From Alphaproteobacteria bacterium (GTDB lineage: Bacteria; Pseudomonadota; Alphaproteobacteria; UBA828), in contig CBDCQT010000012.1 in NCBI GenBank assembly GCA_965220745.1, positions 608,001 to 672,000 on the forward strand: DNA of 64,000 nt, read 5' to 3'. How positions within the stretch are numbered: position 1 is the stretch's first letter; every line of letters begins with the position of its first letter. Shown here piece by piece: positions 9,319 to 56,230 of the stretch. The notes under the pieces are model-generated. The model was given only the letters and a program-made list of their open reading frames with translations. It was not told where the DNA came from and made no database searches. A program made the translations under genes and the position numbers.

Positions 9319-9976
9319 GTCATCCCGCCGCTCCTCCGGCCGCGTCATATCGTGGATCGGAGCCGCCTTGTGCGCGTGGCTCCTGCTGCTCGGCCCGGTG
9401 TCGGGCGCCGCCGAGGAGCCCCGAATCGCCGTGCTGGGGGACAGCCTGACCGCCGGCTTCGGATTGCCGCGCGAGGACGCCTTCCCGGCGCGTCTGGAGG
9501 CCGCGCTCAGGGCCAAGGGCCACGCCTGGCAGGTGATCGACGCCGGGGTCTCCGGCGACACCAGCGCCGGCGGGCTGGCGCGGCTCGACTGGGTGCTCGC
9601 CGACGAGCCGGAGGTCGTGATCGTCGAGCTCGGCGCCAACGACGGTCTGCGCGGGCTGCCGACGGAGCAGATGGAGGCCAATCTCGACGCGATCCTGACG
9701 CAAGTGCGCGACTCCGGCGCGGCGACGCTGCTCGCCGGCATGCGTGCGCCGGCCAACTTCGGCCCCGACTATGAAGCCGCGTTCCACGCCGTCTATGAGC
9801 GCCTCGCCGCCAGGCATGGGGTGGCGTTCTATCCGTTCTTTCTCGAAGGGGTGGCCATGGAGCCCGACCTCAACCAGTCGGACGGTATCCATCCCAACGC
9901 GGCCGGCGTGGCCGAGATCGTGCGGCGCATCCTGCCCCATGTGGTGGCCGTCATCGCCCGGCACAAGGGCGGCTGA
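9317..9976 (+). CDS. tesA: Arylesterase / acyl-CoA thioesterase I (SGNH hydrolase) with signal peptide
   Basis: GDSLTAG, AGVSGDTS, ELGANDGLRG, DGIHPN; divergent from the ybbA-like gene. Confidence 0.9.
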   Translation: MSSRRSSGRVISWIGAALCAWLLLLGPVSGAAEEPRIAVLGDSLTAGFGLPREDAFPARLEAALRAKGHAWQVIDAGVSGDTSAGGLARLDWVLADEPEVVIVELGANDGLRGLPTEQMEANLDAILTQVRDSGAATLLAGMRAPANFGPDYEAAFHAVYERLAARHGVAFYPFFLEGVAMEPDLNQSDGIHPNAAGVAEIVRRILPHVVAVIARHKGG

Positions 9977-10981: not shown

Positions 10982-11076
10982 GGCGGCAAGCCTAAAGCCT
11001 ATGCGGCCTTAGAGAAATCGTGCGGGGCGCTATACTGCGCCGCTTCGAGGGAATGCAGGCTGGGGAGGCCGGGACG

Positions 11077-11907
11077 GTGAGCAACAGAGAGGCGCTGCTG
11101 CGCGCACTCCGCGAGCAGGCGCTCGACATCCGGCGCAATACGTGGCGGGCGTTGCGTGCGGCGGGTTCCGGCCACATGGGGGGCTCGCTCTCTGCGGCCG
11201 ACCTGCTGGCTGCGCTCTACTTCCACTACCTCAACCTCCGACCCGACGAGCCCGACTGGCCCGAGCGCGACCGCTTCGTGCTTTCCAAGGGGCACGCCAA
11301 CACGGCGCTCGGCGCGGTGCTGGCCCAGGCTGGCTTCGTGGACGACGGGTTCATCGACACCTTCTACGCCTACGAATCGCGATTCGGCATGCACCCGGAC
11401 ATCAAGGTCCCCGGCATCGAGATGTGCACCGGCGCCCTCGGCCACGGCCTCTCGGTCGGGCTCGGCATGGCGCTCGGGTCCAGGCTGCAGGGCAAGGACT
11501 GGCGCACCGTGGTGATGCTGGGCGACGGCGAGCTGCAGGAAGGCTCCAACTGGGAGGCGGCGATGGCCGCCGCCCATCTGGCGCCGCTCCGACTCACCGC
11601 CATCCTCGACTACAACAAGGTGCAGCAGAGCGGCCACGTCGCCGAGATGCTGGGGCTGGAGCCGCTGGCGGACAAGTGGCGGGCCTTCGGCTGGTCCGTG
11701 CCCGAATGCGACGGGCACGACATGGGAGAGATCGTCGATGCCCTGGACGCGCTGCCCGCCGCACCTGACAAGCCCTCGCTGCTCATCGCCCACACGGTCA
11801 AGGGCAAGGGCGCGAGCTTCGCCGAGGACACCTACCTCTGGCACAACAACGCGGTGGGCGACGAGGTCTACGAGAAGGCCATGGCCGAGCTGGGAGAGCC
11901 CGCATGA
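11077..11907 (+). CDS. Transketolase, N-terminal (TPP-binding) subunit
   Basis: GHMGGSLS, RDRFVLSKGHA, GDGELQEG..WEA, AHTVKGKG; GGAGG RBS before the GTG at 11077. Confidence 0.9.
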   Translation: MSNREALLRALREQALDIRRNTWRALRAAGSGHMGGSLSAADLLAALYFHYLNLRPDEPDWPERDRFVLSKGHANTALGAVLAQAGFVDDGFIDTFYAYESRFGMHPDIKVPGIEMCTGALGHGLSVGLGMALGSRLQGKDWRTVVMLGDGELQEGSNWEAAMAAAHLAPLRLTAILDYNKVQQSGHVAEMLGLEPLADKWRAFGWSVPECDGHDMGEIVDALDALPAAPDKPSLLIAHTVKGKGASFAEDTYLWHNNAVGDEVYEKAMAELGEPA

Positions 11908-12884
11908 ATGCGCCCAAGCAGGGCAACGGGGCGGAGCCCGCCTGGGTCAAGGCGGCGGCCAACCAATCGCGATTGGCCTTCGGGCTGGCCGTGACCGAGC
12001 TTGGCCGGCGCGACGAGCGGGTGGTCGCGGTCGGCGCCGATACCCTCGACCTCATCGGGCTCAGGGGCTTCATCGAGCACGCGCCCGCGCGGGTCATCGA
12101 CGTCGGCATCGCCGAGCAGAACGCCATGGGCGTGGCCGCGGGGCTCGCCACCACGGGGCTTCGCCCCTTCGTCTGCGGCTACGCGCCCTTCATCACCGCG
12201 CGCTCCATGGAGCAGATCCGCAACGAGGTCGCCTACGCCGATCAGCGCGTGGTGATCGGTGCGGCGGCGAGCGGGGTCTCGCTCGCCGTCTCCGGCGGCA
12301 CCCATCATGCGCTGGAGGACCTGGCGCTAATGCGGAGCCTGCCCAACATGACGGTGCTGGTACCGGCGGACGCCCACGAGGCCTGGCACGCGACGCTGGC
12401 CACCGACGAGATCGACGGCCCCGCCTACATTCGCCTCGGCGGGCGCGTGCCCGAGCCCCCGGTGACGCCCGTCGATGCGCCGTTCAGCCTGGGCCGGGCC
12501 GCGTGTCTAGCCGAGGGCTCGGACGTCGCCGTGATCGCCTGCGGGGCCCTGGTGGCGCCGGCCGTGGACGCGGCAAAGGAACTCGCCGAGCAGGGTATCG
12601 GCGCGCGTGTCCTCAACATGTCTACGATCAAGCCGCTGGACGAGGATGCGGTCCTCGCCGCTGCCGAGGAGACGCGCGGCATCGTCACCGCCGAGGAGCA
12701 TCATCTGACCGGCGGGCTCGGCGGCGCGGTGGCGGAGTTGCTCGCCGTCAGGCGGCCGACGCCCATGCGCATGGTCGGCATGCCCGACGAGTTCGCGGTC
12801 GTCGGCCCTACCGACCGCATCCGCGCGCGCTACGGCATGAGCGCCCGGCACATCGTGGACGCTTGCCTCGACCTGTTGGGCTAG
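11904..12884 (+). CDS. Transketolase, C-terminal subunit
   Basis: DVGIAEQN, GGTHHALED, TIKPLD, EEH...GGLG; ATGA overlap with the N-terminal subunit. Confidence 0.9.
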   Translation: MNAPKQGNGAEPAWVKAAANQSRLAFGLAVTELGRRDERVVAVGADTLDLIGLRGFIEHAPARVIDVGIAEQNAMGVAAGLATTGLRPFVCGYAPFITARSMEQIRNEVAYADQRVVIGAAASGVSLAVSGGTHHALEDLALMRSLPNMTVLVPADAHEAWHATLATDEIDGPAYIRLGGRVPEPPVTPVDAPFSLGRAACLAEGSDVAVIACGALVAPAVDAAKELAEQGIGARVLNMSTIKPLDEDAVLAAAEETRGIVTAEEHHLTGGLGGAVAELLAVRRPTPMRMVGMPDEFAVVGPTDRIRARYGMSARHIVDACLDLLG

Positions 12885-12927: not shown

Positions 12928-13623
12928 ATGAGACGCACGACAGTTCTGGGATGCGCGTTGTTGGTCGTTGCCGGTTGCGGTGGCGGAAGCAACAGCGTCG
13001 AAGAGATGATGACCACGGGGCCGGTTCAGCCTGCCAGCGAAGCCACGCTAAGCACCACTGGCGAATTTCGAGCCGTCCCGATCAATGGCACCGGAGTTGC
13101 CTTCACGGCGGAATTCTACAAATGGGGGGTATGGGGAGGAGTCCTCAGAGACGACTATGTCACGTGCACGGCCATCGGTTGTCCGCCCGCGGGCGAAGCA
13201 ATCTTTTGGGCGTACCTGACCAGCGAGACCGACGGGACGATCACCGCAACAGTGCACGGCGCACAGTCGGGAACGTCGCCGGTGAGCGGGAGCGCCGTGT
13301 GGAGCGGCGATGTCCACGCCTATGAGACGGAAGACGTTACGACCTCCGGGGGGATGTCCGTCACGACTTACGCGCCAGTGGAAGGTGACGCGCGGCTGGA
13401 GGTCGACTTCGCGGCCGCTACCGTCGATATCGATTTCACGAACTTGGACAACAGCCAGGCAGACATGTCCTGGGACGGGCTCGCCGTGGACAACGGCGCG
13501 TTCGGGAGCGGAGCCGCGGGCATAGCGGGCTCGTTCTATGGCGCGGGTCATGAAGGCGCCGCCGGCACCTTCGCCCGCGACGGCCTTGCGGGCGTGTTCG
13601 GCGCTCTCCGCTCTTCCAACTGA
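12928..13623 (+). CDS. Surface lipoprotein with a transferrin-binding-protein-like C-terminal beta barrel
   Basis: Lipobox VAG-C followed by GGGS; SGSAVWSG...GDARLEVDF...GSFYGAGHEGAAGTF...GVFGA barrel signature. Confidence 0.7.
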   Translation: MRRTTVLGCALLVVAGCGGGSNSVEEMMTTGPVQPASEATLSTTGEFRAVPINGTGVAFTAEFYKWGVWGGVLRDDYVTCTAIGCPPAGEAIFWAYLTSETDGTITATVHGAQSGTSPVSGSAVWSGDVHAYETEDVTTSGGMSVTTYAPVEGDARLEVDFAAATVDIDFTNLDNSQADMSWDGLAVDNGAFGSGAAGIAGSFYGAGHEGAAGTFARDGLAGVFGALRSSN

Positions 13624-14061
13624 GCCGGCGCAGGCGGTTCCACCGTCGCCACCTGTACCCTCCTTTTGCCCCGGACCATGGTGCGGTGCTCGGCGGGCAG
13701 CGGCCGCGTCATGATCGCGCCATGCGGAACGAGGGCGAGCGGCGCGCGATGGTAGTGGCAAGGGGGCGCTTCCCGGTCGAGGGGTTGCCGTCTGCGCCGG
13801 CGGCCGCCCGTCCGGCAGTCCCGAACTTGTCCCACGCATCCCGCCTAATCCCGGCGTGTCTCGCCTCAAATTTTTGTTTCGCGTCCCATGTCCTTGGAGC
13901 GGGCCGGCATCGTCGATCCAGGCGCACCCGTCTGGATTACGAGGTCTGCACCCGTCGCGAGCTTGCGTCTCCTCAGCGATGACATGAGAATGGCAGGCGT
14001 GGCCGGGGCGGCGGCTAAGCGCCCCGGTGCCCCGGAAATGTCAGCGTGCGGGAGGTCGGCG

Positions 14062-15552
14062 ATGCTCGAACGCTCCGAATGGTACGATATCGCGCGGGAT
14101 ACCAACTGGACGCCCTCCTACGTCTCGCAGGAGGCGCTGTTTCCGCCCGAGATGGGCGATCCCTACGGCATTCCCACCGAGGAGTGGGAGACCTTCGACG
14201 AGCCTTACAAGGTCTCCTACCGCGAGTACGTGAACATTCAGCGCGAGAAGGATTCGGCCGCCTACTCGGTGAAGGCGGCGCTGGCGCGCTCCAAGTTCCA
14301 CGACGAGGCCGATGAGGGCTGGGCCTGCGTGCTCAAGCTGCACTACGGCGCCGTGGCGCTCACCGAGTACCAGGCCTGCCAGTTCCAGGCGCGGATGTCG
14401 CGCTTCGGCCCGTCGCCCGCGATGCGCAACATGTCGGTCTACGGCATGCTGGACGAGCTGCGGCACACGCAGCTTCAGCTCTTCTTCCCGCACGAGCTGG
14501 TCCACCGCGACCGCCAGTACGACTGGGCCCACGAGGCCCAGCACTCCAAGAACTGGGCGGTTTTAGGCGGCCGCCACGCCATGGACGACATCATGATGAC
14601 GCGGGACGCGATCACGTCTTCGGTGATGGTCTCCTTCGCCTTCGAGACCGCGCTCACCAACCTGCAGATGATCGGGCTTTCGACCGACGCCGCCAATCTG
14701 GGCGACCACACCTTCGCCAACCTGATCACCAGCATCCAGTCGGACGAGGCCCGTCACGCCCAGCTCGGCACGCCCACCATCGAGATCATGATCCGCAACG
14801 GCCGCAAGGAGGAAGCGCAGCAGGCCATGGACATCGCGCTCTGGCGGGTCTGGCGGCTCTTCTCGATCACTGTCGGCATCCCGATGGACTACTACATCCC
14901 GCTCGAGCAGCGGCACATGTCCTTCAAGGAGTTCATGCACGAGTGGGTGATCAACCAGTGGGAGCGGCAGGTGCAGGACCTCGGCCTGGAGCGGCCGTGG
15001 TACTGGGACATCTTCCTCCTCGACATCGACAATCACCACCACTGCCAGCAGGGCGGCATCTGGTCGTGGCGGCCGACGGTCTGGTGGAACCCGCCGGGCG
15101 CGGTGGGGCCCAAGGAGCGTGCGTGGCTGGAGGAGAAGTATCCCGGCTGGAACAAGAGCTACGGCAGCTATTGGGATGTCATCACCAACAACCTGCTGCA
15201 GGGGCACGAGGAAAAGACGCATCCCCAGTGCATCCCGATCATCTGCAACATGTGCCAGATTCCGATCTCGCACCGGCCGGGCCCGGAGTGGGGCGCCCGC
15301 GCCTACCAGCGCGAGTACGGCGAGCGGCGCTACAACTTCTGCACCGAGGTGTGCCGCTGGATCTTCGATACCGACCCGGAGCGCTACAAGGACCACGAGA
15401 CCATCGTGGACCGCATGTATTCGGGCGAGATCGATCCGCCGACGTTGGAGAACGTGCTCACCTACATGGGCATCGGCGTGATCAGCGAGGGCGGCCGCGA
15501 CGGTCACGACTACCGTTGGGTCGAGGGTTTTCGCGCCCAGGCGGCGGAATAG
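14062..15552 (+). CDS. tmoA: Soluble di-iron monooxygenase hydroxylase alpha subunit, toluene/alkene monooxygenase group (TmoA/TouA-like)
   Basis: WYDIARDTNWTPSYV, DEPYK.SY.EYV..QREKD, di-iron motifs DELRH and DEARH, WLEEKYPGW, C-terminal YHS-like region; GGAGG RBS at 14051. Confidence 0.93.
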   Translation: MLERSEWYDIARDTNWTPSYVSQEALFPPEMGDPYGIPTEEWETFDEPYKVSYREYVNIQREKDSAAYSVKAALARSKFHDEADEGWACVLKLHYGAVALTEYQACQFQARMSRFGPSPAMRNMSVYGMLDELRHTQLQLFFPHELVHRDRQYDWAHEAQHSKNWAVLGGRHAMDDIMMTRDAITSSVMVSFAFETALTNLQMIGLSTDAANLGDHTFANLITSIQSDEARHAQLGTPTIEIMIRNGRKEEAQQAMDIALWRVWRLFSITVGIPMDYYIPLEQRHMSFKEFMHEWVINQWERQVQDLGLERPWYWDIFLLDIDNHHHCQQGGIWSWRPTVWWNPPGAVGPKERAWLEEKYPGWNKSYGSYWDVITNNLLQGHEEKTHPQCIPIICNMCQIPISHRPGPEWGARAYQREYGERRYNFCTEVCRWIFDTDPERYKDHETIVDRMYSGEIDPPTLENVLTYMGIGVISEGGRDGHDYRWVEGFRAQAAE

Positions 15553-15585
15553 CCAAGCGGCACCTATCGCGTTGCTGAGGGCGGC

Positions 15586-15858
15586 ATGAGCGCGTTCCCG
15601 ATTCTCTCGCGCTTCCAGCAGGACGCGCACATCAAGACGGTGGAAATCGAGCCGGGCCAGACCATGGACGAGGTGGCGGCGGCCTGCGCCTTCCACTCGA
15701 TCGGGCTGCACGTGGCGGACAAGCCAGGCCGGACGCTGCGCGTGCGGCCCACCACCGAGGACGACTCCGCGCCGCCCTGGCCGCGCGATCTCACGGTCGA
15801 GAAGGCGGGCATCCGCTTCTACGACTGCATCGACATCTATTTCGAAGAGCCCCGGTAG
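15586..15858 (+). CDS. tmoB: Monooxygenase hydroxylase gamma subunit (TmoB-like)
   Basis: MSAFP start, TMDEVA..CAFHS, PRDLTVEKAG, IDIYFEE. Confidence 0.88.
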   Translation: MSAFPILSRFQQDAHIKTVEIEPGQTMDEVAAACAFHSIGLHVADKPGRTLRVRPTTEDDSAPPWPRDLTVEKAGIRFYDCIDIYFEEPR

Positions 15859-15891
15859 CCCACGCGCACCGGGGATTGGAGTGACCGACGC

Positions 15892-16227
15892 ATGGCGTTC
15901 AAGAAGGCCTGCACGCTGGACGACATCTGGGAAGGCGACATGGAGACCTTCGACGTGGATGGCACCGAGGTGCTGCTCGTCCATGTCGAAGGCGAGGGCA
16001 TTCACGCGCTCCAGGCGCAGTGCCCGCATCAGGAGGTGGACTTGGTGGACGGCGATCTCGACGGCCGGGTGCTGACCTGCATGATGCACCTCTGGGAGTT
16101 CGACGTGGTGGCGGGCAAGGGGGTGAACCCAGCCGATGCCGAGATCGCCCAGTATCCGGTCAAGATCGAGGGCGAGGACGTCCTGGTCGATGTCGAGGGC
16201 ATCGAGCCCAAGCATGCCAAGCCCTGA
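15892..16227 (+). CDS. tmoC: Rieske [2Fe-2S] ferredoxin (TmoC-like)
   Basis: LDDIWEGDM, QAQCPHQ...LTCMMHLWEFD (CxH/CxxH), GKGVNP. Confidence 0.9.
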   Translation: MAFKKACTLDDIWEGDMETFDVDGTEVLLVHVEGEGIHALQAQCPHQEVDLVDGDLDGRVLTCMMHLWEFDVVAGKGVNPADAEIAQYPVKIEGEDVLVDVEGIEPKHAKP

Positions 16228-16254
16228 CGGTGCGGCTTAGCGGGAGGAACGGCG

Positions 16255-16560
16255 ATGAGCGGTGACGACACGGCACGCAAGAACGCGGTCGGCCCGGTGC
16301 TGCGCGCGGGCGAGGTCGCCGATGCCGTGGTCGAGGCCCTGGAGGAGGATAATCCCGGCAAGGAGTTCACGGTCGAGGACCGGGTCGCTTACGTCCGGGC
16401 CGAGACCGAGGGCGAGTGCGTGGTGCGGGCAGAGACCGTGGCGCGGGTGCTCGGCCGGCCGTTCAAGATCGCCGAGCTGGAGGTCAATCTCAGCTCATTC
16501 TCGGGCCGGATCGAGACCACTGATGACACCATGCGCTTCTACTTCGAGAAGAGGCTGTAG
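16255..16560 (+). CDS. tmoD: Monooxygenase effector/coupling protein (TmoD/MmoB/DmpM family)
   Basis: NAVGPVLRAG, EEDNPGKE, VEDRVAYVR, LGRPF, ELEVNLSSFSGRI. Confidence 0.9.
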   Translation: MSGDDTARKNAVGPVLRAGEVADAVVEALEEDNPGKEFTVEDRVAYVRAETEGECVVRAETVARVLGRPFKIAELEVNLSSFSGRIETTDDTMRFYFEKRL

Positions 16561-16636
16561 GCACTATCCAACCGGACAGGATCGTATCCAGTTGCTGCAA
16601 GTTTCCATTTCGCCTGAAGTGCGGCTAGAGACCCCC

Positions 16637-16743
16637 CCACCTCACCCCGGCCCTCTCCGCCCCCAGGGGCGGAGAGGGAGAGCCGCGTCGGCCCCACCCA
16701 CGTCCCCCCTCCGCCTTTGGGGGAGGGGGACAGGGGGAGGTGG
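16637..16743. repeat. Alphaproteobacterial palindromic element (CIR/RPE-like, two hairpins)
   Basis: 13-bp stem CCCTCTCCGCCCC/GGGGCGGAGAGGG (16651-16678), second stem at about 16703-16730, outer ends CCACCTC.../...GAGGTGG. Confidence 0.7.
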
Positions 16744-16831
16744 TTGTTCTTCGGACCGCAGTGATCCAGTCAGGCCGGATAATGCTCCAGAGACTCGCTC
16801 GCGATGGACGCGAAGGGCATTGGGCTGAGGC

Positions 16832-17131
16832 ATGGCGAGTGAGGCGCAGGGCGGCCGCGTTCAGGCCGCGATCCGCCAAAAACTGAGCGAGGCGCTGGCA
16901 CCCAGCCGCCTCGACATCGTGGACGATTCCGCGCGCCACGCCGGCCATGTCGGCGCGCGGCCCGAGGGCGAAAGCCACTTCATCGTGGAAATCGCCTCCG
17001 AACGCTTCGCCGGTCTCTCCCGCGTCGCCCGCCAGCGTCTGGTTCACAAGGTGCTCGAAGACGAGTTGCGCACCGACGTTCACGCCCTCGCACTGAAATC
17101 CCTCACCCCGGAAGAAGACGCCGCGCTGTAG
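16832..17131 (+). CDS. bolA: BolA family protein
   Basis: DDSARHAGH, GESHF, F.GLSRVARQRLV, VHALAL. Confidence 0.93.
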   Translation: MASEAQGGRVQAAIRQKLSEALAPSRLDIVDDSARHAGHVGARPEGESHFIVEIASERFAGLSRVARQRLVHKVLEDELRTDVHALALKSLTPEEDAAL

Positions 17132-17137
17132 GACGGC

Positions 17138-18070
17138 CTACTCCGCCGCCATCAGCGTCTCGACGTGGGTTGCCGCGCTGGCGCCGAGGGCGCGCAGGTC
17201 GTAGCCGCCTTCGAGGGTCGAGACGACGCGGCCGTCGCAAAGCTCGCCTGCCAACCGGGTCAACTCCGTGGTGATCCAGCGGTAGTCGTCTTCGACCAGC
17301 TCGAGGTTCGCCAGCGGATCGTCGCGGTGCGCGTCGAAGCCGGCAGAGATCAGGATCATCTCGGGGCGGAAGGCGCGGAGTGCCGGCAGCATTCGGCTCT
17401 CCATCGCATCGCGGAAGCCGGCGGAGCCCGTGCCCGGCGAGAGCGGCGCGTTGACGATGTTGCCGACGCCGGTTTCGCTTGCCGCGCCCGTGCCCGGATA
17501 GAGCGGCCACTGGTGGGTGGAGCCGAAGAAGAGGTCGCCGTCTTGCTCGAACGCGGCTTGCGTGCCATTGCCGTGGTGGACGTCGAAGTCGATCACGGCG
17601 ATCCGCGTCAGCCCGTGGGTGCGCCGTGCCCGCTCAGCCCCGATCACGACGTTGTTGAAGAGGCAGAAGCCCATCGGCCGGCGAGGCTCCGCATGGTGGC
17701 CCGGCGGACGCACCGCGCAGAAGGCGTTGTCCGCCTCGCCGGCGAACACCGCATCCACCGCAGCCGCGACCGCGCCCGCCGCGCGCCGCGCCGCTTCGCC
17801 CGAAGCGGGCGACATCACCGTGTCGGCGTCAATGGCGACCCGCCCTTCGGAGGGCACGTTGGTAAGAATGGCGTCCACCAGCTTCTCGTCGTGCGCCCAG
17901 GCAAGGATCTCGGCATCGCCCATGGGCGCCTCGCGGCGATCGAGCGGCTCGAAGGCGTCGGCGGCCAGCGCATCCTCAATCGCCCCCAACCGCGCGCCCG
18001 ATTCCGGGTGACGCGCGCCGGGGTCGTGGTCCGCGCACACGGGATGGCTGTATAGGATCGTCTTCGCCAC
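17138..18070 (-). CDS. Histone deacetylase family protein (acetyl-lysine/acetylpolyamine amidohydrolase)
   Basis: HPESGARL, RPPGHHA, MGFCLFNN, DFDVHHGNGT, SAGFDAH..DPL, LEGGY. Confidence 0.93.
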   Translation of the reverse strand: MAKTILYSHPVCADHDPGARHPESGARLGAIEDALAADAFEPLDRREAPMGDAEILAWAHDEKLVDAILTNVPSEGRVAIDADTVMSPASGEAARRAAGAVAAAVDAVFAGEADNAFCAVRPPGHHAEPRRPMGFCLFNNVVIGAERARRTHGLTRIAVIDFDVHHGNGTQAAFEQDGDLFFGSTHQWPLYPGTGAASETGVGNIVNAPLSPGTGSAGFRDAMESRMLPALRAFRPEMILISAGFDAHRDDPLANLELVEDDYRWITTELTRLAGELCDGRVVSTLEGGYDLRALGASAATHVETLMAAE

Positions 18071-51941: not shown

Positions 51942-53537
51942 ATGAACGAAACCTCTCACGACCTGCGGGCGCTGGCTCAGAACGCCAAGGCCTGGCCTTT
52001 CAAGGAGGCCGCGGCGCTCCTGAAGCGCATCGGCGGCACGACGCCGGCGAAGGGCTATGCGCTGTTCGAGACCGGCTACGGCCCCTCGGGCCTACCCCAT
52101 ATCGGCACCTTCGCCGAGGTCGCGCGCACGACCATGGTGCGCCACGCCTTTGCCACGCTTTGCGACATTCCGACGCGCCTCGTGGCCTTCTCGGACGACA
52201 TGGACGCGCTGCGCAAGGTGCCGGACAACATTCCCGAACGCGCGATGGTCGAGCAGCACCTGGGCAAGCCGCTGACCCAGATTCCCGACCCCTTCGGCAC
52301 GCACGAGAGTTTCGGGGCGCACAACAACGCGCGGCTGCGGGCCTTCCTCGACGACTTCGGCTTCGACTACAGCTTCAAGAGCTCGAGCGAGGCTTACCGG
52401 TCAGGCGAGTTCGACGGCGCGCTCATGGACGTGCTGCGTCACTACGACGAGATCATGCGGATCATCCTGCCGACGCTGGGCGCCGAGCGGCAGGCGACCT
52501 ACAGCCCCTTCCTGCCGCTCTGCCCCAAGACCGGCCGCGTGCTGCAGGTGCCGATCACGGCCCGTGACGAGGACGCTGGCACCGTGAGCTACGTGGACGA
52601 GGACGGCGAGACCATGACGGTCCCGGTCACGGGCGGTCGTTGCAAGCTGCAGTGGAAGGCGGACTGGGCCATGCGCTGGCATGCGCTTGGCGTCGATTAC
52701 GAGATGGCGGGGAAGGACCTGATCAGCTCGGTCGAGCTTTCGGGCAAGATCTGCCGCGCGCTGGGCTCCAGGCCGCCCGCCGGCTTCATCTACGAGCTCT
52801 TCCTCGACGAGAACGGCGAGAAGATCTCGAAGTCGCGCGGCAACGGGCTCACGATCGAGGAGTGGCTTACCTACGGGCCGCGCGATTCGCTCTCGCTCTA
52901 CATGTACAACGCGCCGAGGCGGGCCAAGCGGCTCTACTTCGACGTGATCCCACGCCATGTCGACGATTACCTGACCCATCTCGCGAAGTACCCGGCGCAG
53001 GGGGAGACCGAGCGGCTGGAGAGCCCGGCCTGGCACATTCACGCGGGCCACCCGCCCGCGCCCGAGACCGGATTGAGCTACGGCATCCTTCTGAACCTCG
53101 CGAGCGTCTGCAACACCGAGGACCCGGCCGTCCTCTGGGGCTTCATCGCCCGCTACGTGCCTGGTGCCTCACCGGAGACCGCGCCCATCCTCGATGAGCT
53201 GGTGGGCCACGCCATCTGCTACTACCGTGATCGGGTGAAGCCGACGAAGGCGTATCGGGCGCCACTGGCGGAGGAGCGGGCGGCGCTCGACGACCTGCGT
53301 ACCGTGCTGGCCGCGCTGCCGGCGGACGCGAGCGCCGAGGACATCCAGACCGAGGTCTACGAGGTGGGCAAGCGCCACCCGTTCGAATCCCTGCGCGAGT
53401 GGTTCCGTGCGCTCTACGAGATCCTCCTGGGCCAGAGCCAGGGCCCGCGCATGGGCTCGTTCATCGCGCTCTACGGGCTCGCGGAGACGGTCGTGCTGAT
53501 TGACCGCGCGTTGGCTGGCGAGGACCTGGCTGCGTAG
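51942..53537 (+). CDS. lysK: Lysine--tRNA ligase, class I
   Basis: [38 protein letters not shown]. Confidence 0.95.
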
Positions 53538-53821
53538 CAGGGGCGATCCCGAAGCGCCGCGCCGCCGCCTCCGCGACATCCCAAGCGTCCCTTCGACCTC
53601 GACCTCCCTGTTGGGGCTAGGTGAGAATAGAGCCACTCCAACTCTTCCTCTTTCAAACATCTAACCTGATTTAGGCTGCTCATTGCGGCAAATGAACCGG
53701 CATGATTTGCAAAATATAATCTGGAGATCGATGCGGTATAGTGCTATATTAATTGGCTGCGACTGACACCACGACACTCGTTGTTTTGCGTTAATGTAGG
53801 TCTATCGCAAGATCATGGTAA

Positions 53822-55096
53822 ATGCCCGGTATATCTAAATTCACTCGCCCAGCGTTCGGAAAACGCATTGCCATACTGGCACCCAGCCTAGCTGGGCAAG
53901 GAGCCGAGAGGAAGGCACTGTGTATCGGAGCCGGGCTGCTTGAGCGAGGCCACAAAGTCGATCTTCTCCTCTATCGACTCGTTTGCCACTATCCTGAAGA
54001 AGTACCGGATGGGATGCGCATTTACTATGCTTCAGGCCGAAATGACAGTAGAACGCGTTTGAATCTGGACCGAGTCACTGCGATTCACCAGCCTTTCGTG
54101 CCCGATCCTCTTCCTTGGCGCATTCGCCTTCCGCGTCTGGGAACGGTGAACCGTCTGTCGCGCAAGCACTTGCCGCTGCTCACGAGTACGAGACTTCCTC
54201 GATGGGCCGTTTGCATCGCCGCATACATGGATCGAAAGAAACCGGACGCGCTTCTGGCCATGCATGTTCTCGCGACTACAGCGGCAGCAATGGCAACGCA
54301 TCTCACTTCCCACAGGGCGAAAACGGTAGCCACATTGCACGGGCCGTTAACGCGTCGGCTTCTGCATCGAGCACGCCGCTCGTATCCCTACGCGGATGAG
54401 GTTGTTGGAGTGTCTCATGGTATAACGAGCGAGTTTTCCAAAGTCCCAAACTTGTCAGGTGGTCGGGTTCACACCGTCTATAATCCCATTGACATCGGCT
54501 ATATCAAACGGAAATCAAGAGAGCCAGTCAACCATTGTTGGCTTGTTAATCCTAACTGTCCAGTCATATTGGCCATCGGTAAGTTGATTAAGAGGAAGGA
54601 TTTTGTCACTCTTCTTCGCGCCTTCGCGCGTCTCGTGTCCAAGCGGAAGGCGCGATTGATCGTTCTTGGAGAAGGTCGTTTTCGGTCAAGCCTGCATTCG
54701 TTGGCAAATAGACTTAGCGTGGCTGAACATGTTGACTTTCCGGGGTTCGCAGAAAATCCTTTCGCCTTTCTCGCAAAAGCCGATTTATTCGTACTCTCAT
54801 CCCGAAACGAGGGGCTTCCTACCGTTCTCATCGAAGCGATGGTTTGCGGATGCCCGGTCGTCAGCACGGACTGTGACTTTGGGCCTCGGGAAATTCTGGA
54901 AGACGGCCGCCAAGGGCCTCTGGTACCCGTGGGAGAGCCGGAGGCACTTGCAGGCGCCATGCTCTCCGTTCTGGACAACCCGCCGCGGCGCGAGGCGCTG
55001 CAGACTCGAGCGGAATTCTTCAACGCCGCTCGGGCAGTAGACCGGTACGAAGAGCTGCTGTTGGGTGAGGAACGCTGGGTAGAACAGCGAGCGTGA
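53822..55096 (+). CDS. Glycosyltransferase family 4 (AT-richer DNA)
   Basis: GQGAER, VYNP, GKL..RKDF..LL.AF, FVLSSRNEGLPTVLIEAM.CGCPVVSTDC..GP.EIL. Confidence 0.9.
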   Translation: MPGISKFTRPAFGKRIAILAPSLAGQGAERKALCIGAGLLERGHKVDLLLYRLVCHYPEEVPDGMRIYYASGRNDSRTRLNLDRVTAIHQPFVPDPLPWRIRLPRLGTVNRLSRKHLPLLTSTRLPRWAVCIAAYMDRKKPDALLAMHVLATTAAAMATHLTSHRAKTVATLHGPLTRRLLHRARRSYPYADEVVGVSHGITSEFSKVPNLSGGRVHTVYNPIDIGYIKRKSREPVNHCWLVNPNCPVILAIGKLIKRKDFVTLLRAFARLVSKRKARLIVLGEGRFRSSLHSLANRLSVAEHVDFPGFAENPFAFLAKADLFVLSSRNEGLPTVLIEAMVCGCPVVSTDCDFGPREILEDGRQGPLVPVGEPEALAGAMLSVLDNPPRREALQTRAEFFNAARAVDRYEELLLGEERWVEQRA

Positions 55097-55177
55097 ACCT
55101 CGCGAGATGGGAGGCCTCCTCGTCCGTCATTGGGTCGATCCGTTTGAGGTTCTGAATTTAGCTCGTAAGTAAAGTGT

Positions 55178-56230
55178 ATGGTCCAGATTTCCGATATCCA
55201 TGTTGTTGCGCCACACTTCAAGCGCCGGTACTCGGGCGTGACCAGCACGATCATTCAGTTAATCCCCAAACAGGCAGAAAAAGTCGGAATTGCCACGCTA
55301 GGGCCGGGCTTGCCCAACGGCCTTCCCAAGATCGCTTGGTGGCAGATGCCCTTGCTCCTTAAGCGACCGCGCCAGCGCCCCCTCCGCATTTGGCACGCCC
55401 GGCGAAATAACGAGATGCTGATTGGGTTGTTCCTGAAAGCCGCGTTTCGAGCGCCGTTGACGCTCGTTTTCACCTCTGCCGCGCAGCGTTCGCGCAGTTG
55501 GTTCAGCCGGTTCCTGATATCGCGAATGGACTCTGTTATTGCAACCAGCGGTCCATCTGGGCAAACCTTGACGGTACCCCACACCGTTGTAATGCATGGA
55601 GTGGATTGTGCGCGATTTCGCCCGCCCATGGGCCCGGACGATCAGTGGGAACGCAGCGGATTGCCAGGTCGGTATGCAATCGGGTGTTTTGGCCGTATCC
55701 GATATCTGAAAGGAACCGATCTATTCGTCGATGCGATGGTGCATCTGTTGCCAGACTATCCGGACTGGACCGCTGTAGTGGCGGGAAGAGTGACTTGTCA
55801 TAACCGTTACTTCTATGAAACATTACTGCGTCGCATTGTGCGTGAAGACTTGGAGAGGCGGATCGTATTTCTGGGAGAAGTATCTAATGCAAATCTTTGG
55901 TTTCGGCGGCTGACGTTACATGTTTCACCTTCGCGATATGAGGGTTTCGGACTGACCCCGCTCGAGGCCATGGCCTCTCAAACCGCGGTCGTGGCGAGCG
56001 ACGCCGGGTCGTATCCGGAAATGATCGTGGAGGGTGTAACAGGGGCTGTCGTATCAGCCGGGGACGGCGATGCACTCGTCGAGGCAATCAGACGCTATAT
56101 GGCAGATCCTGAGCTTGCGGCCGTACATGGACGCAACGGTCGCAAACATGTGTGTGAGAACTTCCCTGTCGAGAAGGAAATGAGCGGCATTAACGCCGTT
56201 TACGATCGGATTTGGCGAGACAGCAAATGA
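55178..56230 (+). CDS. LPS core glycosyltransferase family 4, LpcC/LpsB/WadC-like
   Basis: FKRRYSGVTSTI, IWHARRNNEM, FTSAAQR, FGRIR..KGTDLFV, EGFGLTPLEAMAS. Confidence 0.85.
   Translation: MVQISDIHVVAPHFKRRYSGVTSTIIQLIPKQAEKVGIATLGPGLPNGLPKIAWWQMPLLLKRPRQRPLRIWHARRNNEMLIGLFLKAAFRAPLTLVFTSAAQRSRSWFSRFLISRMDSVIATSGPSGQTLTVPHTVVMHGVDCARFRPPMGPDDQWERSGLPGRYAIGCFGRIRYLKGTDLFVDAMVHLLPDYPDWTAVVAGRVTCHNRYFYETLLRRIVREDLERRIVFLGEVSNANLWFRRLTLHVSPSRYEGFGLTPLEAMASQTAVVASDAGSYPEMIVEGVTGAVVSAGDGDALVEAIRRYMADPELAAVHGRNGRKHVCENFPVEKEMSGINAVYDRIWRDSK

Follow-up and report, generated by a model that had tools for sequence, protein, structure and literature searches.

Toluene monooxygenase (TMO)-type enzymes are four-component soluble di-iron monooxygenases, which appear as group 2 in older classification schemes. 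The closest described systems to the locus reported here are ToMO (touABCDEF; 1t0q), whose source organism is Pseudomonas sp. OX1, and T4MO (tmoABCDEF; 3dhg, 1vm9, 3dhh). In the parts of a 2025 review that were consulted (PMC11825192), the class is named 'group 1 TMOs' and its six genes are ordered alpha, gamma, ferredoxin, coupling protein, beta and reductase, while phenol hydroxylases are given the order accessory-beta-effector-alpha-gamma-reductase. A possible precedent for a TMO-like cluster outside the six-gene set is HpdABCDE, the 2-hydroxypyridine 5-monooxygenase of Burkholderia sp. MAK1, a di-iron enzyme named with five genes that is called 'atypical' in the consulted part of PMC8313251. 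No description of a TMO-type cluster without beta was found in the main texts of the part of the literature that was searched, where every match to 'tmoABCD' was in fact tmoABCDEF.

The present locus is a four-gene cluster in an alphaproteobacterial contig, located in a window (the whole stretch of DNA analysed) of 64 kb. It resembles ToMO in an alpha subunit that aligns from end to end, in the six iron ligands, in a gamma subunit similar to TouB and in the order alpha-gamma-ferredoxin-effector. In ToMO, however, TouE (beta) and TouF (reductase) are encoded by the fifth and sixth genes of the operon, whereas the operon in the window ends at the effector and is followed by bolA. It likewise differs from T4MO in having neither tmoE nor tmoF.

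Gene content and flanks of the cluster

Four ORFs, here called A, B, C and D, occupy positions 14062-16560 of the window; all are intact and on the plus strand (Table 1). The gaps A-B, B-C and C-D measure 33, 33 and 27 nt, and purine-rich stretches resembling ribosome-binding sites (GGGAGG) precede A and D. In a PDB sequence search, A matched the ToMO alpha chain 1t0q_A over residues 1-492 with 673 bits and T4MO TmoA (3dhg_A) with 663 bits; B matched the TouB/TmoB chains; C matched T4moC (1vm9_A) with 127 bits (2.9e-36); and D matched T4moD with 109 bits (9e-31). Phenol hydroxylases of the dmpKLMNOP type were considered and rejected, as their chains reached 146 bits against 673 for ToMO, and neither the gene order nor the Rieske gene fits that type.

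Table 1. Features of the four-gene cluster and its flanks, in window coordinates
Feature	Position	Strand	Description
Promoter-like block TTGCGT-N17-GAGAAT	13966..13998	+	About 65-95 nt 5' of the alpha start codon; conserved in relatives
A, tmoA/touA-like hydroxylase alpha	14062..15552	+	496 aa; PF02332 Phenol_Hydrox 6.6e-71 and YHS (Pfam)
B, tmoB/touB-like hydroxylase gamma	15586..15858	+	90 aa; PF06234 TmoB 7.7e-19 (Pfam)
C, tmoC-like Rieske [2Fe-2S] ferredoxin	15892..16227	+	111 aa; PF00355 Rieske 1.8e-17 (Pfam)
D, tmoD-like effector/coupling protein	16255..16560	+	101 aa; PF02406 MmoB/DmpM 1.2e-30 (Pfam)
Non-coding spacer D-bolA	16561..16831	.	271 nt; nested GC-rich hairpins/inverted repeats
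bolA	16832..17131	+	PF01722 (Pfam); right-hand neighbour conserved in L001, L003 and L004; marks the junction without beta

The six di-iron ligands of 1t0q_A align to E102, E132, H135, E195, E229 and H232 of A. In a set of 32 homologues, five of these residues (E102, H135, E195, E229, H232) never vary, and E132 is conserved in at least 90%. The translation of C contains the cluster ligands C44-x-H46...C63-x-x-H66, which correspond to the Rieske CxH...CxxH pattern. Thus the cluster has the features by which the TMO type is recognised in its first four genes, namely a Phenol_Hydrox alpha with two E...ExxH motifs, a TmoB gamma after alpha, a Rieske ferredoxin and an MmoB/DmpM effector; a beta after the effector and an NADH oxidoreductase with plant-type ferredoxin, FAD and NAD domains are not in the cluster. 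A sequence-only reading of this DNA had described intact and tightly spaced tmoA-B-C-D homologues with a good RBS and complete metal ligands, and the analysis confirms this description.

The same reading had reported no TmoE- or TmoF-like ORF in the 64 kb, and this was confirmed by two approaches. Forty-seven likely coding frames of the window were chosen by codon-position GC and all were scanned with Pfam (39 + 8); they contained neither a second PF02332 protein besides A nor a reductase with Fer2, FAD_binding_6 or NAD_binding_1 domains. Six-frame tblastn of the whole window gave no credible match, either with 5 beta and 3 reductase queries or with 11 beta and 6 reductase queries. The sole E-value below 1e-3 in the smaller set came from the out-of-frame head of the L005 beta ORF, which overlaps gene D, and it was discarded.

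The upstream neighbour, which had been taken for a lipoprotein, encodes a protein of 233 aa whose matches to TbpB_B_D and Slam-lipoprotein are weak. Upstream of A, the block TTGCGT-N17-GAGAAT is conserved in an alignment of the window with the related loci L001, L002 and L003; its exact 16-mer occurs in 3 of the 78 loci listed, and L004 has the near-identical TTGCTT-N17-GAGAAT. From this conservation we infer a promoter role for the block. A sigma-70 and terminator consensus scan of 13500-17200 called no promoter; it missed this block because the -35 element matches the consensus at only 3 of 6 positions. The one terminator-like site of the scan lies on the minus strand (17137-17120).

A non-coding palindrome followed by bolA had also been noted downstream of the cluster, and both are present. 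The spacer between D and bolA contains a perfect 13-bp stem (16651-16678) and outer arms at 16637-16661 and 16719-16743, then TTGTTCTTC; its fold has a z of -2.8. It is probably a terminator or an inserted structured element. The corresponding spacers of L001, L003 and L004 measure about 190, 177 and 41 nt, and the hairpin block is absent in all three. No remnant of a beta gene was detected in the window spacer by tblastn, and every Rfam match to it was below the gathering score and at chance level. The palindrome was also considered as a dispersed repeat, and this was rejected: the window contains 11 copies of the 13-mer when as many as 2 mismatches are allowed, against 7.6 expected, and its exact copies are the two arms only.

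Related loci and the loss of beta from the operon

An alpha-only scan of genome contigs yielded at least 78 related loci. Among the 78 listed, 75 have a D gene with at least 900 nt after it and could be judged for beta, which directly follows D in 71. One of the other judged loci, L063, carries a beta fragment of about 100 aa (1/75), and L001, L003 and L004 have none (3/75). The D-to-bolA junction of the window recurs in these last three, so that close relatives with ABCD-only clusters, for which the sequence-only reading had proposed a check, do exist; the contig of L002 stops inside D. Each of the loci L001 to L004 represents a different species of the collection. The order transketolase-lipoprotein-ABCD-bolA-deacetylase-DegP is common to the window, L001 and L003, while L002 shares the upstream half of it and L004 shares ABCD-bolA-deacetylase-DegP. 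Compared with these relatives, the window has a nucleotide identity of 82-95% and an alpha protein identity of 94.6-99.0%. No beta, reductase or remnant of either was found by tblastn in the window, L001 and L003 loci, the ABCD clusters of L001 and L003 have no beta up to 10 kb away, and no second alpha locus is present on the contigs of L001, L002 and L003 among the loci listed.

ABCDE clusters, with beta after the effector, were seen in L005, L006, L007 and L010-L013. The sister clusters L005 and L006 have alpha proteins 91-93% identical to that of the window, the same first four genes and no adjacent reductase; they differ, as do the other five, in keeping beta directly after the effector and in lying in other genomic contexts. 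A TmoF-like reductase gene stands beside the cluster in only 2 of the 20 judged loci of the window's alpha clade (27 rows and 24 loci, among the loci listed), so the lack of a reductase is not special to this locus. Unrelated genes lie between B and C in L006 and L012, and L014 and L016 have the arrangement A-B-D-E without a ferredoxin gene. Given these insertions, the ferredoxin-less loci and the scarcity of adjacent reductases, splitting of the operon is common in this alpha clade, which consists of uncharacterised enzymes from Alphaproteobacteria and Actinomycetota.

In the alpha tree (43 rows), the window and L001-L004 form one clade with an SH-aLRT support of 95. L005 and L006 together are its sister, and the seven rows are united with a support of 100. 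On this tree beta was lost a single time from its position after D, on the branch leading to the clade of the window, whereas the sister clade retains it; the loss is older than the divergence of at least four species. With stem lengths of 0.044 and 0.035, alpha shows no burst of change after beta was lost.

The dN/dS values against L001-L004 were 0.036-0.101 for A, 0.048-0.207 for B, 0-0.167 for C and 0.076-0.224 for D, as low as those of the flanking housekeeping genes (0.025-0.386). For A against the beta-carrying L005, L006 and L007 the values were 0.079-0.086 and show no relaxation. By this measure, which the sequence-only reading had proposed, the four genes (0-0.22) are under purifying selection and not decaying. 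The suggestion of a recently truncated operon therefore holds in one part, in that beta has gone once from this position, and fails in the other, as at least four species have diverged since the loss and the genes show no decay. A misassembly near 16560 is ruled out by the presence of the same junction in three independent assemblies, two of which are single-contig chromosomes.

Possible sources of beta and reductase

The best account of these observations is that the locus is probably a conserved and functional split operon for a soluble di-iron monooxygenase of the TMO (toluene/alkene monooxygenase) type, which would receive its beta and reductase in trans. Judged from the sequences, the missing beta is most likely encoded elsewhere in the genome, as opposed to the locus specifying a new kind of enzyme. 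The operon in the window encodes the catalytic alpha, the small gamma, the Rieske ferredoxin and the effector, probably with its own conserved promoter. The beta gene left its position after the effector in an ancestor shared by a small alphaproteobacterial clade, and the operon now abuts bolA. Alpha and gamma would assemble with a beta encoded elsewhere on the chromosome, a TmoE orthologue of the type represented by P0153, into the usual (alpha-beta-gamma)2 hydroxylase. Electrons would pass from an NADH reductase, also encoded elsewhere as in most relatives of the clade, to the operon's own ferredoxin. For the window itself, we infer that both beta and reductase are present in its own genome and that assembly takes place in trans. 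Of the suggestions made in the sequence-only reading, that of a cassette drawing its beta and reductase from a different locus is favoured, on account of the ABCD-bolA arrangement in four species-level genomes, the purifying selection and the betas outside ABCD in L004.

Evidence on such betas comes from L004. Adjoining its ABCD cluster is an intact set alpha2-gamma2-beta2, divergent from ABCD and without its own ferredoxin or effector, in which alpha2 keeps all iron ligands. In addition, P0153 is a beta of 330 aa, 82% identical to the L005 beta and 67% to L004 beta2. It is not inside the 21.5-kb L004 locus and seems to lie on the L004 chromosome, the sole basis for this placement being that the longest contig of its cluster and that of L004 both measure 4,150,400 bp. 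In a beta tree of 59 rows, P0153 groups with 7 further cluster representatives (support 99), and this group is nested in a larger clade of 30 rows, also with a support of 99, to which the betas of L005 and L006 belong; the placement mirrors the alpha tree. P0153 is thus of the beta type orthologous to the one that was lost. A smaller tree of 36 rows had pointed to L004 beta2 as the relocated orthologue; this was dropped, as the 59-row tree places beta2 outside the clade of L005, L006 and P0153. The 90% alpha cluster P0001 comprises 347 sequences, against 73 in all for the 8 P0153-type beta clusters, a mismatch that carries little weight because P0001 also holds L005- and L006-type proteins. 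In a search with the L009 reductase, none of the best 120 representatives lies on a contig with the length of an L003-L006 chromosome.

A second reading, that ABCD is one of at least two alpha-gamma pairs sharing a single beta and/or a ferredoxin and effector and conferring alternative specificities, is unlikely, even though it finds some precedent in the related loci. The L004 set described above borders ABCD and has no ferredoxin or effector; L010, ordered A-B-A'::B'(fusion)-C-D-E, combines two alpha-gamma pairs with one beta, one ferredoxin and one effector; and the iron ligands are complete in L004 alpha2 as well as in L010 A'. By analogy with L004, the 'swappable substrate specificity' of the sequence-only reading is plausible. 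The alpha2 type is rare, however, with 11 members in its 90% cluster (P0013) and 2 + 13 in the beta2-type clusters against 347 for the ABCD-type alpha, and neither the window nor the 10-kb surroundings of ABCD in L001 and L003 contain a second set. Moreover, the orthologous beta type seems to be present in L004 as a separate gene (P0153), and one beta per alpha may therefore hold. A broader form is given a similarly low probability: a modular system whose parts (alpha-gamma cassettes, betas, ferredoxin-effector pairs, reductases) lie dispersed over the chromosome and combine in trans, with one beta and/or ferredoxin-effector pair serving several alpha paralogues that differ in specificity and, at the extreme, an alpha that works without any beta.

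It is very improbable that alpha and gamma, with ferredoxin and effector, form an active oxygenase without beta. The absence of beta from the window and from the 10-kb surroundings of ABCD in L001 and L003 would agree with such an enzyme, as would the continued purifying selection on the four genes. Against it, every SDIMO hydroxylase is alpha2beta2 or alpha2beta2gamma2 according to the consulted parts of the 2025 review (PMC11825192), alpha is not accelerated on the branch where beta left the operon, and L004, the sole member with further genome data, appears to encode betas elsewhere. The earlier suggestion of a reduced system working without beta found no positive support. Least credible is a non-functional remnant of a five- or six-gene operon after a 3' deletion, or an assembly artefact near 16560: the prevalence of beta after D (71 of the 75 judged loci among those listed), the difference of only 7-9% in alpha from the nearest beta-carrying relatives and the break of the L002 contig inside D would suit it, but it is largely refuted by the identical junction in three further assemblies, of which two are whole-chromosome contigs, by ORFs that are intact in the window, L001, L003 and L004 with the low dN/dS values given above, by the conserved promoter-like block and by a spacer free of beta remnants.

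Implications for annotation and enzyme evolution

Since chemistry typical of the family is expected, the value of the split operon lies mainly in annotation and enzyme evolution. In genomes and metagenomes, TMO-type monooxygenases are usually identified and counted through the full six-gene operon; a 2026 survey (PMC13603553), in the part consulted, includes in its count only MAGs that have tmoABCDEF as a 'full operon'. Such rules would overlook, or rate as incomplete, a lineage that keeps a conserved and selected ABCD operon apart from its beta and reductase.

The heterologous expression of these enzymes is a known difficulty, as stated in the review sections consulted (PMC11825192). The locus offers a naturally occurring example in which to ask how far alpha and beta need to be encoded together and whether paralogous hydroxylases share components, a question that bears on this difficulty.

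Composition and surroundings of the four-gene cluster

The cluster in the window (G+C about 68% over 64 kb) consists of closely spaced ORFs for alpha (A), gamma (B), Rieske ferredoxin (C) and effector (D), all on the + strand. In PDB searches, A matches the ToMO alpha chain (1t0q_A, 673 bits) and the toluene-4-monooxygenase alpha chain (3dhg_A, 663 bits) from one end to the other, whereas phenol hydroxylase (146 bits) and methane monooxygenase (about 49 bits) match it much more poorly. Residues E102, E132, H135, E195, E229 and H232 occupy the positions aligned to the six iron ligands. The PDB counterparts by sequence are TouB/TmoB for B, T4moC for C, whose translation contains the CxH...CxxH cluster motif, and T4moD for D. 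In NCBIfam, A and B lack an equivalog, and C and D gave sub-threshold matches only. An RBS-like GGGAGG precedes A and D. The Pfam and PDB matches, ligands and motif agree with the sequence-only reading, which described four intact tmoA-B-C-D homologues.

Coordinates of features in the window and in related loci
Feature	Locus	Coordinates	Strand	Description
A	window	14062-15552	+	496 aa; Pfam Phenol_Hydrox plus YHS
B	window	15586-15858	+	90 aa; Pfam TmoB
C	window	15892-16227	+	111 aa; Pfam Rieske
D	window	16255-16560	+	101 aa; Pfam MmoB/DmpM
Transketolase halves	window	11020-12884		directly 5' of lipoprotein gene; N- half PF00456, C- half PF02779 plus PF02780
TTGCGT-N17-GAGAAT block	window; L001; L002; L003; L004	13966-13998; 9918-9933; 9915-9930; 9910-9925; about 9925-9957
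Nested hairpin block	window	16637-16743		GC-rich
alpha::TmoB fusion	L010	7104-8942		622-aa frame
alpha2, TmoB-like gamma2, beta2	L004	6882-9895	-	divergent from ABCD, about 260 nt apart; then rplM/rpsI

The same reading had reported beta and reductase missing from the 64 kb, and both searches bear this out. Among 47 likely coding frames chosen by codon-position G+C and all scanned against Pfam (39 + 8), A alone carries PF02332, with no second such protein and no Fer2/FAD_binding_6/NAD_binding_1 protein. When the beta and reductase proteins of related loci were run by tblastn against all six frames of the window, no match emerged. No likely coding frame was picked in 53537-56184, and G+C falls to 0.556 in 54001-56000 versus about 0.68 elsewhere.

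A lipoprotein-like ORF lies 5' of A, and beyond it a split transketolase, kept as two genes in L001-L003 (L001-L004 being the closest relatives of the window). A Mutator-family transposase (PF00872) is located just 5' of the transketolase genes in L003 (5376-6641); none occupies that spot in the window. The TTGCGT-N17-GAGAAT block, 65-95 nt 5' of A and conserved in the window and L001-L004, is a possible promoter, which a simple consensus promoter scan did not pick up. Downstream, a non-coding spacer of 271 nt separates D from bolA and contains a perfect 13-bp hairpin inside a longer imperfect one; its fold is more stable than shuffles (z = -2.8). The nested hairpin block is missing from the spacers of L001 (about 190 nt), L003 (about 177 nt) and L004 (about 41 nt) and looks like a later insertion of a structured element, not dispersed as a repeat within the window.

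Gene order in related loci

Of 8000 candidates scored, 829 were alpha homologues at E <= 1e-3. An alignment of 32 homologues, used as query against species-representative genomes, gave at least 78 loci, each with up to 10 kb per side, in which A-D were mapped by phmmer, and beta and reductase by HMMs built from the loci themselves plus tblastn. For beta, 75 of the at least 78 listed loci were judged; L002 (ends inside D), L060 (321 nt after D) and L065 (alpha only) stand outside the count. Beta lies directly 3' of D in 71 of the 75, including one actinobacterial group with the order A-B-D-E-(F)-C, where E is beta and F reductase. L063 has a beta fragment of about 100 aa only. As to whether close TmoA homologues also sit in ABCD-only clusters, L001, L003 and L004 do, with no beta detected after D by HMM or tblastn. 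A TmoF-like reductase adjoins the cluster in 42 of the 78 loci listed.

The alpha tree contained 43 rows out of 82 alpha-like ORFs, namely all those of the window and L001-L030, plus nine more distant loci. The window groups with L001-L004 in a single clade (SH-aLRT 95), whose sister is L005+L006 (support 100 for the seven), both with A-B-C-D-E. Since the beta-less alphas form one clade and the sister keeps beta, a single loss from the operon at the clade base explains the pattern. The stem branch of this clade (0.044) is no longer than that of its sister (0.035). About 0.9 kb 3' of beta, L005 encodes a protein with ankyrin repeats (five Ank-type Pfam families; 14364-15479).

In the wider alpha clade of the window (27 rows, 24 loci), the cluster has been broken up and rearranged repeatedly. 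Among the 20 loci of this clade with flank enough to judge, only L008 and L009 have a reductase beside the cluster; the other 18 lack one there. Unrelated genes separate gamma from ferredoxin in L006 (11796-14560; a periplasmic binding protein and an unknown ORF) and L012 (11784-14370; DUF6655, a ZIP-like protein and an opposite-strand GntR regulator). The order is alpha-gamma-effector-beta in L014 (478-3607) and L016 (1-3113), both short contigs, where tblastn detected no Rieske ferredoxin gene. L010 has two alpha-gamma pairs, one fused, with one beta (A-B-A'B'-C-D-E). The window arrangement adds one further break to a system already in pieces.

Alpha database matches also include fusions of about 600 aa (cluster representatives P0015, P0019, P0022-P0024, P0056 and P0083). 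Two nearly identical tandem alphas in L041 (9902-13204) and an alpha without B, C or D in L065 (10001-11461), on contigs of one MAG, may reflect the assembly. A PucR-family regulator comes after beta in L017-L022 (about 13050-15480 each; actinobacterial and one Chloroflexota relatives) and LamB/YcsF in L024 (13533-14270, with biotin carboxylase) and L035 (13102-14067); L020 also has a cytosine/purine-type permease (15254-16789). The regulator, permease and LamB/YcsF neighbours possibly hint at non-hydrocarbon substrates.

Possible sources of beta and reductase

The only direct data on beta location come from L004, in which a second hydroxylase gene set adjoins ABCD. Its alpha2 is 69% identical to the window alpha with all ligands kept, and no second ferredoxin or effector occurs at the locus. 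In the large protein collection, beta2 retrieved two close clusters (96% and 92%), then none above 74%. For a further beta-type representative, P0153 (330 aa), the longest contig recorded measures 4,150,400 bp, identical in size to the L004 contig; the protein was not found within the 21.5-kb L004 locus. It shares 82% identity with the L005 beta and 67% with beta2. A 59-row beta tree joins P0153 with seven other representatives in one clade (support 99), nested in a 30-row clade (support 99) that holds the L005 and L006 betas and excludes beta2; this placement mirrors the alpha tree. From the contig size, the tree position and the alpha2-gamma2-beta2 set, the L004 genome most likely carries, at a third site, the orthologue of the beta "missing" after D, and also a second complete hydroxylase that has to rely on borrowed ferredoxin and effector. 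With the nearest clade reductase as query, no reductase was tied to genomes of the beta-less clade among the matches listed.

The best-supported reading, and a probable one, is that ABCD is a functional split operon to which beta and reductase would be supplied in trans from elsewhere. A design in which components are shared with a second hydroxylase, such as L004 has beside ABCD, is rather unlikely. A true beta-less hydroxylase is more doubtful still; a 2025 review (PMC11825192) describes the hydroxylases of these enzymes as alpha2beta2 or alpha2beta2gamma2.

Age of the junction and novelty of the organisation

The window alpha is 99.0% identical to that of L001, 96.6% to L002, 95.8% to L003 and 94.6% to L004, and the neighbourhoods share 82-95% nucleotide identity. 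The order transketolase-lipoprotein-ABCD-bolA-deacetylase-DegP is common to the window, L001 and L003; L002 shares the upstream half and L004 ABCD-bolA onward. Because the D-bolA junction recurs in L001, L003 and L004, and two of the L001-L004 records are single-contig chromosomes, it is real and predates the divergence of at least four species. The proposed dN/dS check, run pairwise within the window and L001-L004, gave 0.036-0.101 for A, 0.048-0.207 for B, 0-0.167 for C and 0.076-0.224 for D, within the range of flanking bolA, deacetylase, transketolase halves, DegP and ABC ATPase (0.025-0.386); for A against beta-carrying L005-L007 it was 0.079-0.086, matching the within-set values. The shared junction and low dN/dS argue against the misassembly at about 16560 or deletion remnant considered earlier, and a dead remnant or artefact is the least credible explanation.

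The six-gene order is given for the toluene-monooxygenase (TMO) group in PMC11825192 (section 3.1), and none of the literature passages covered describes a TMO-type cluster that lacks beta. The four proteins are family members by sequence, and beta and reductase, two organisational features of the family, are not in cis. On this sequence evidence, the cluster would thus be new in gene organisation, the kind of enzyme being already known and not a new system.
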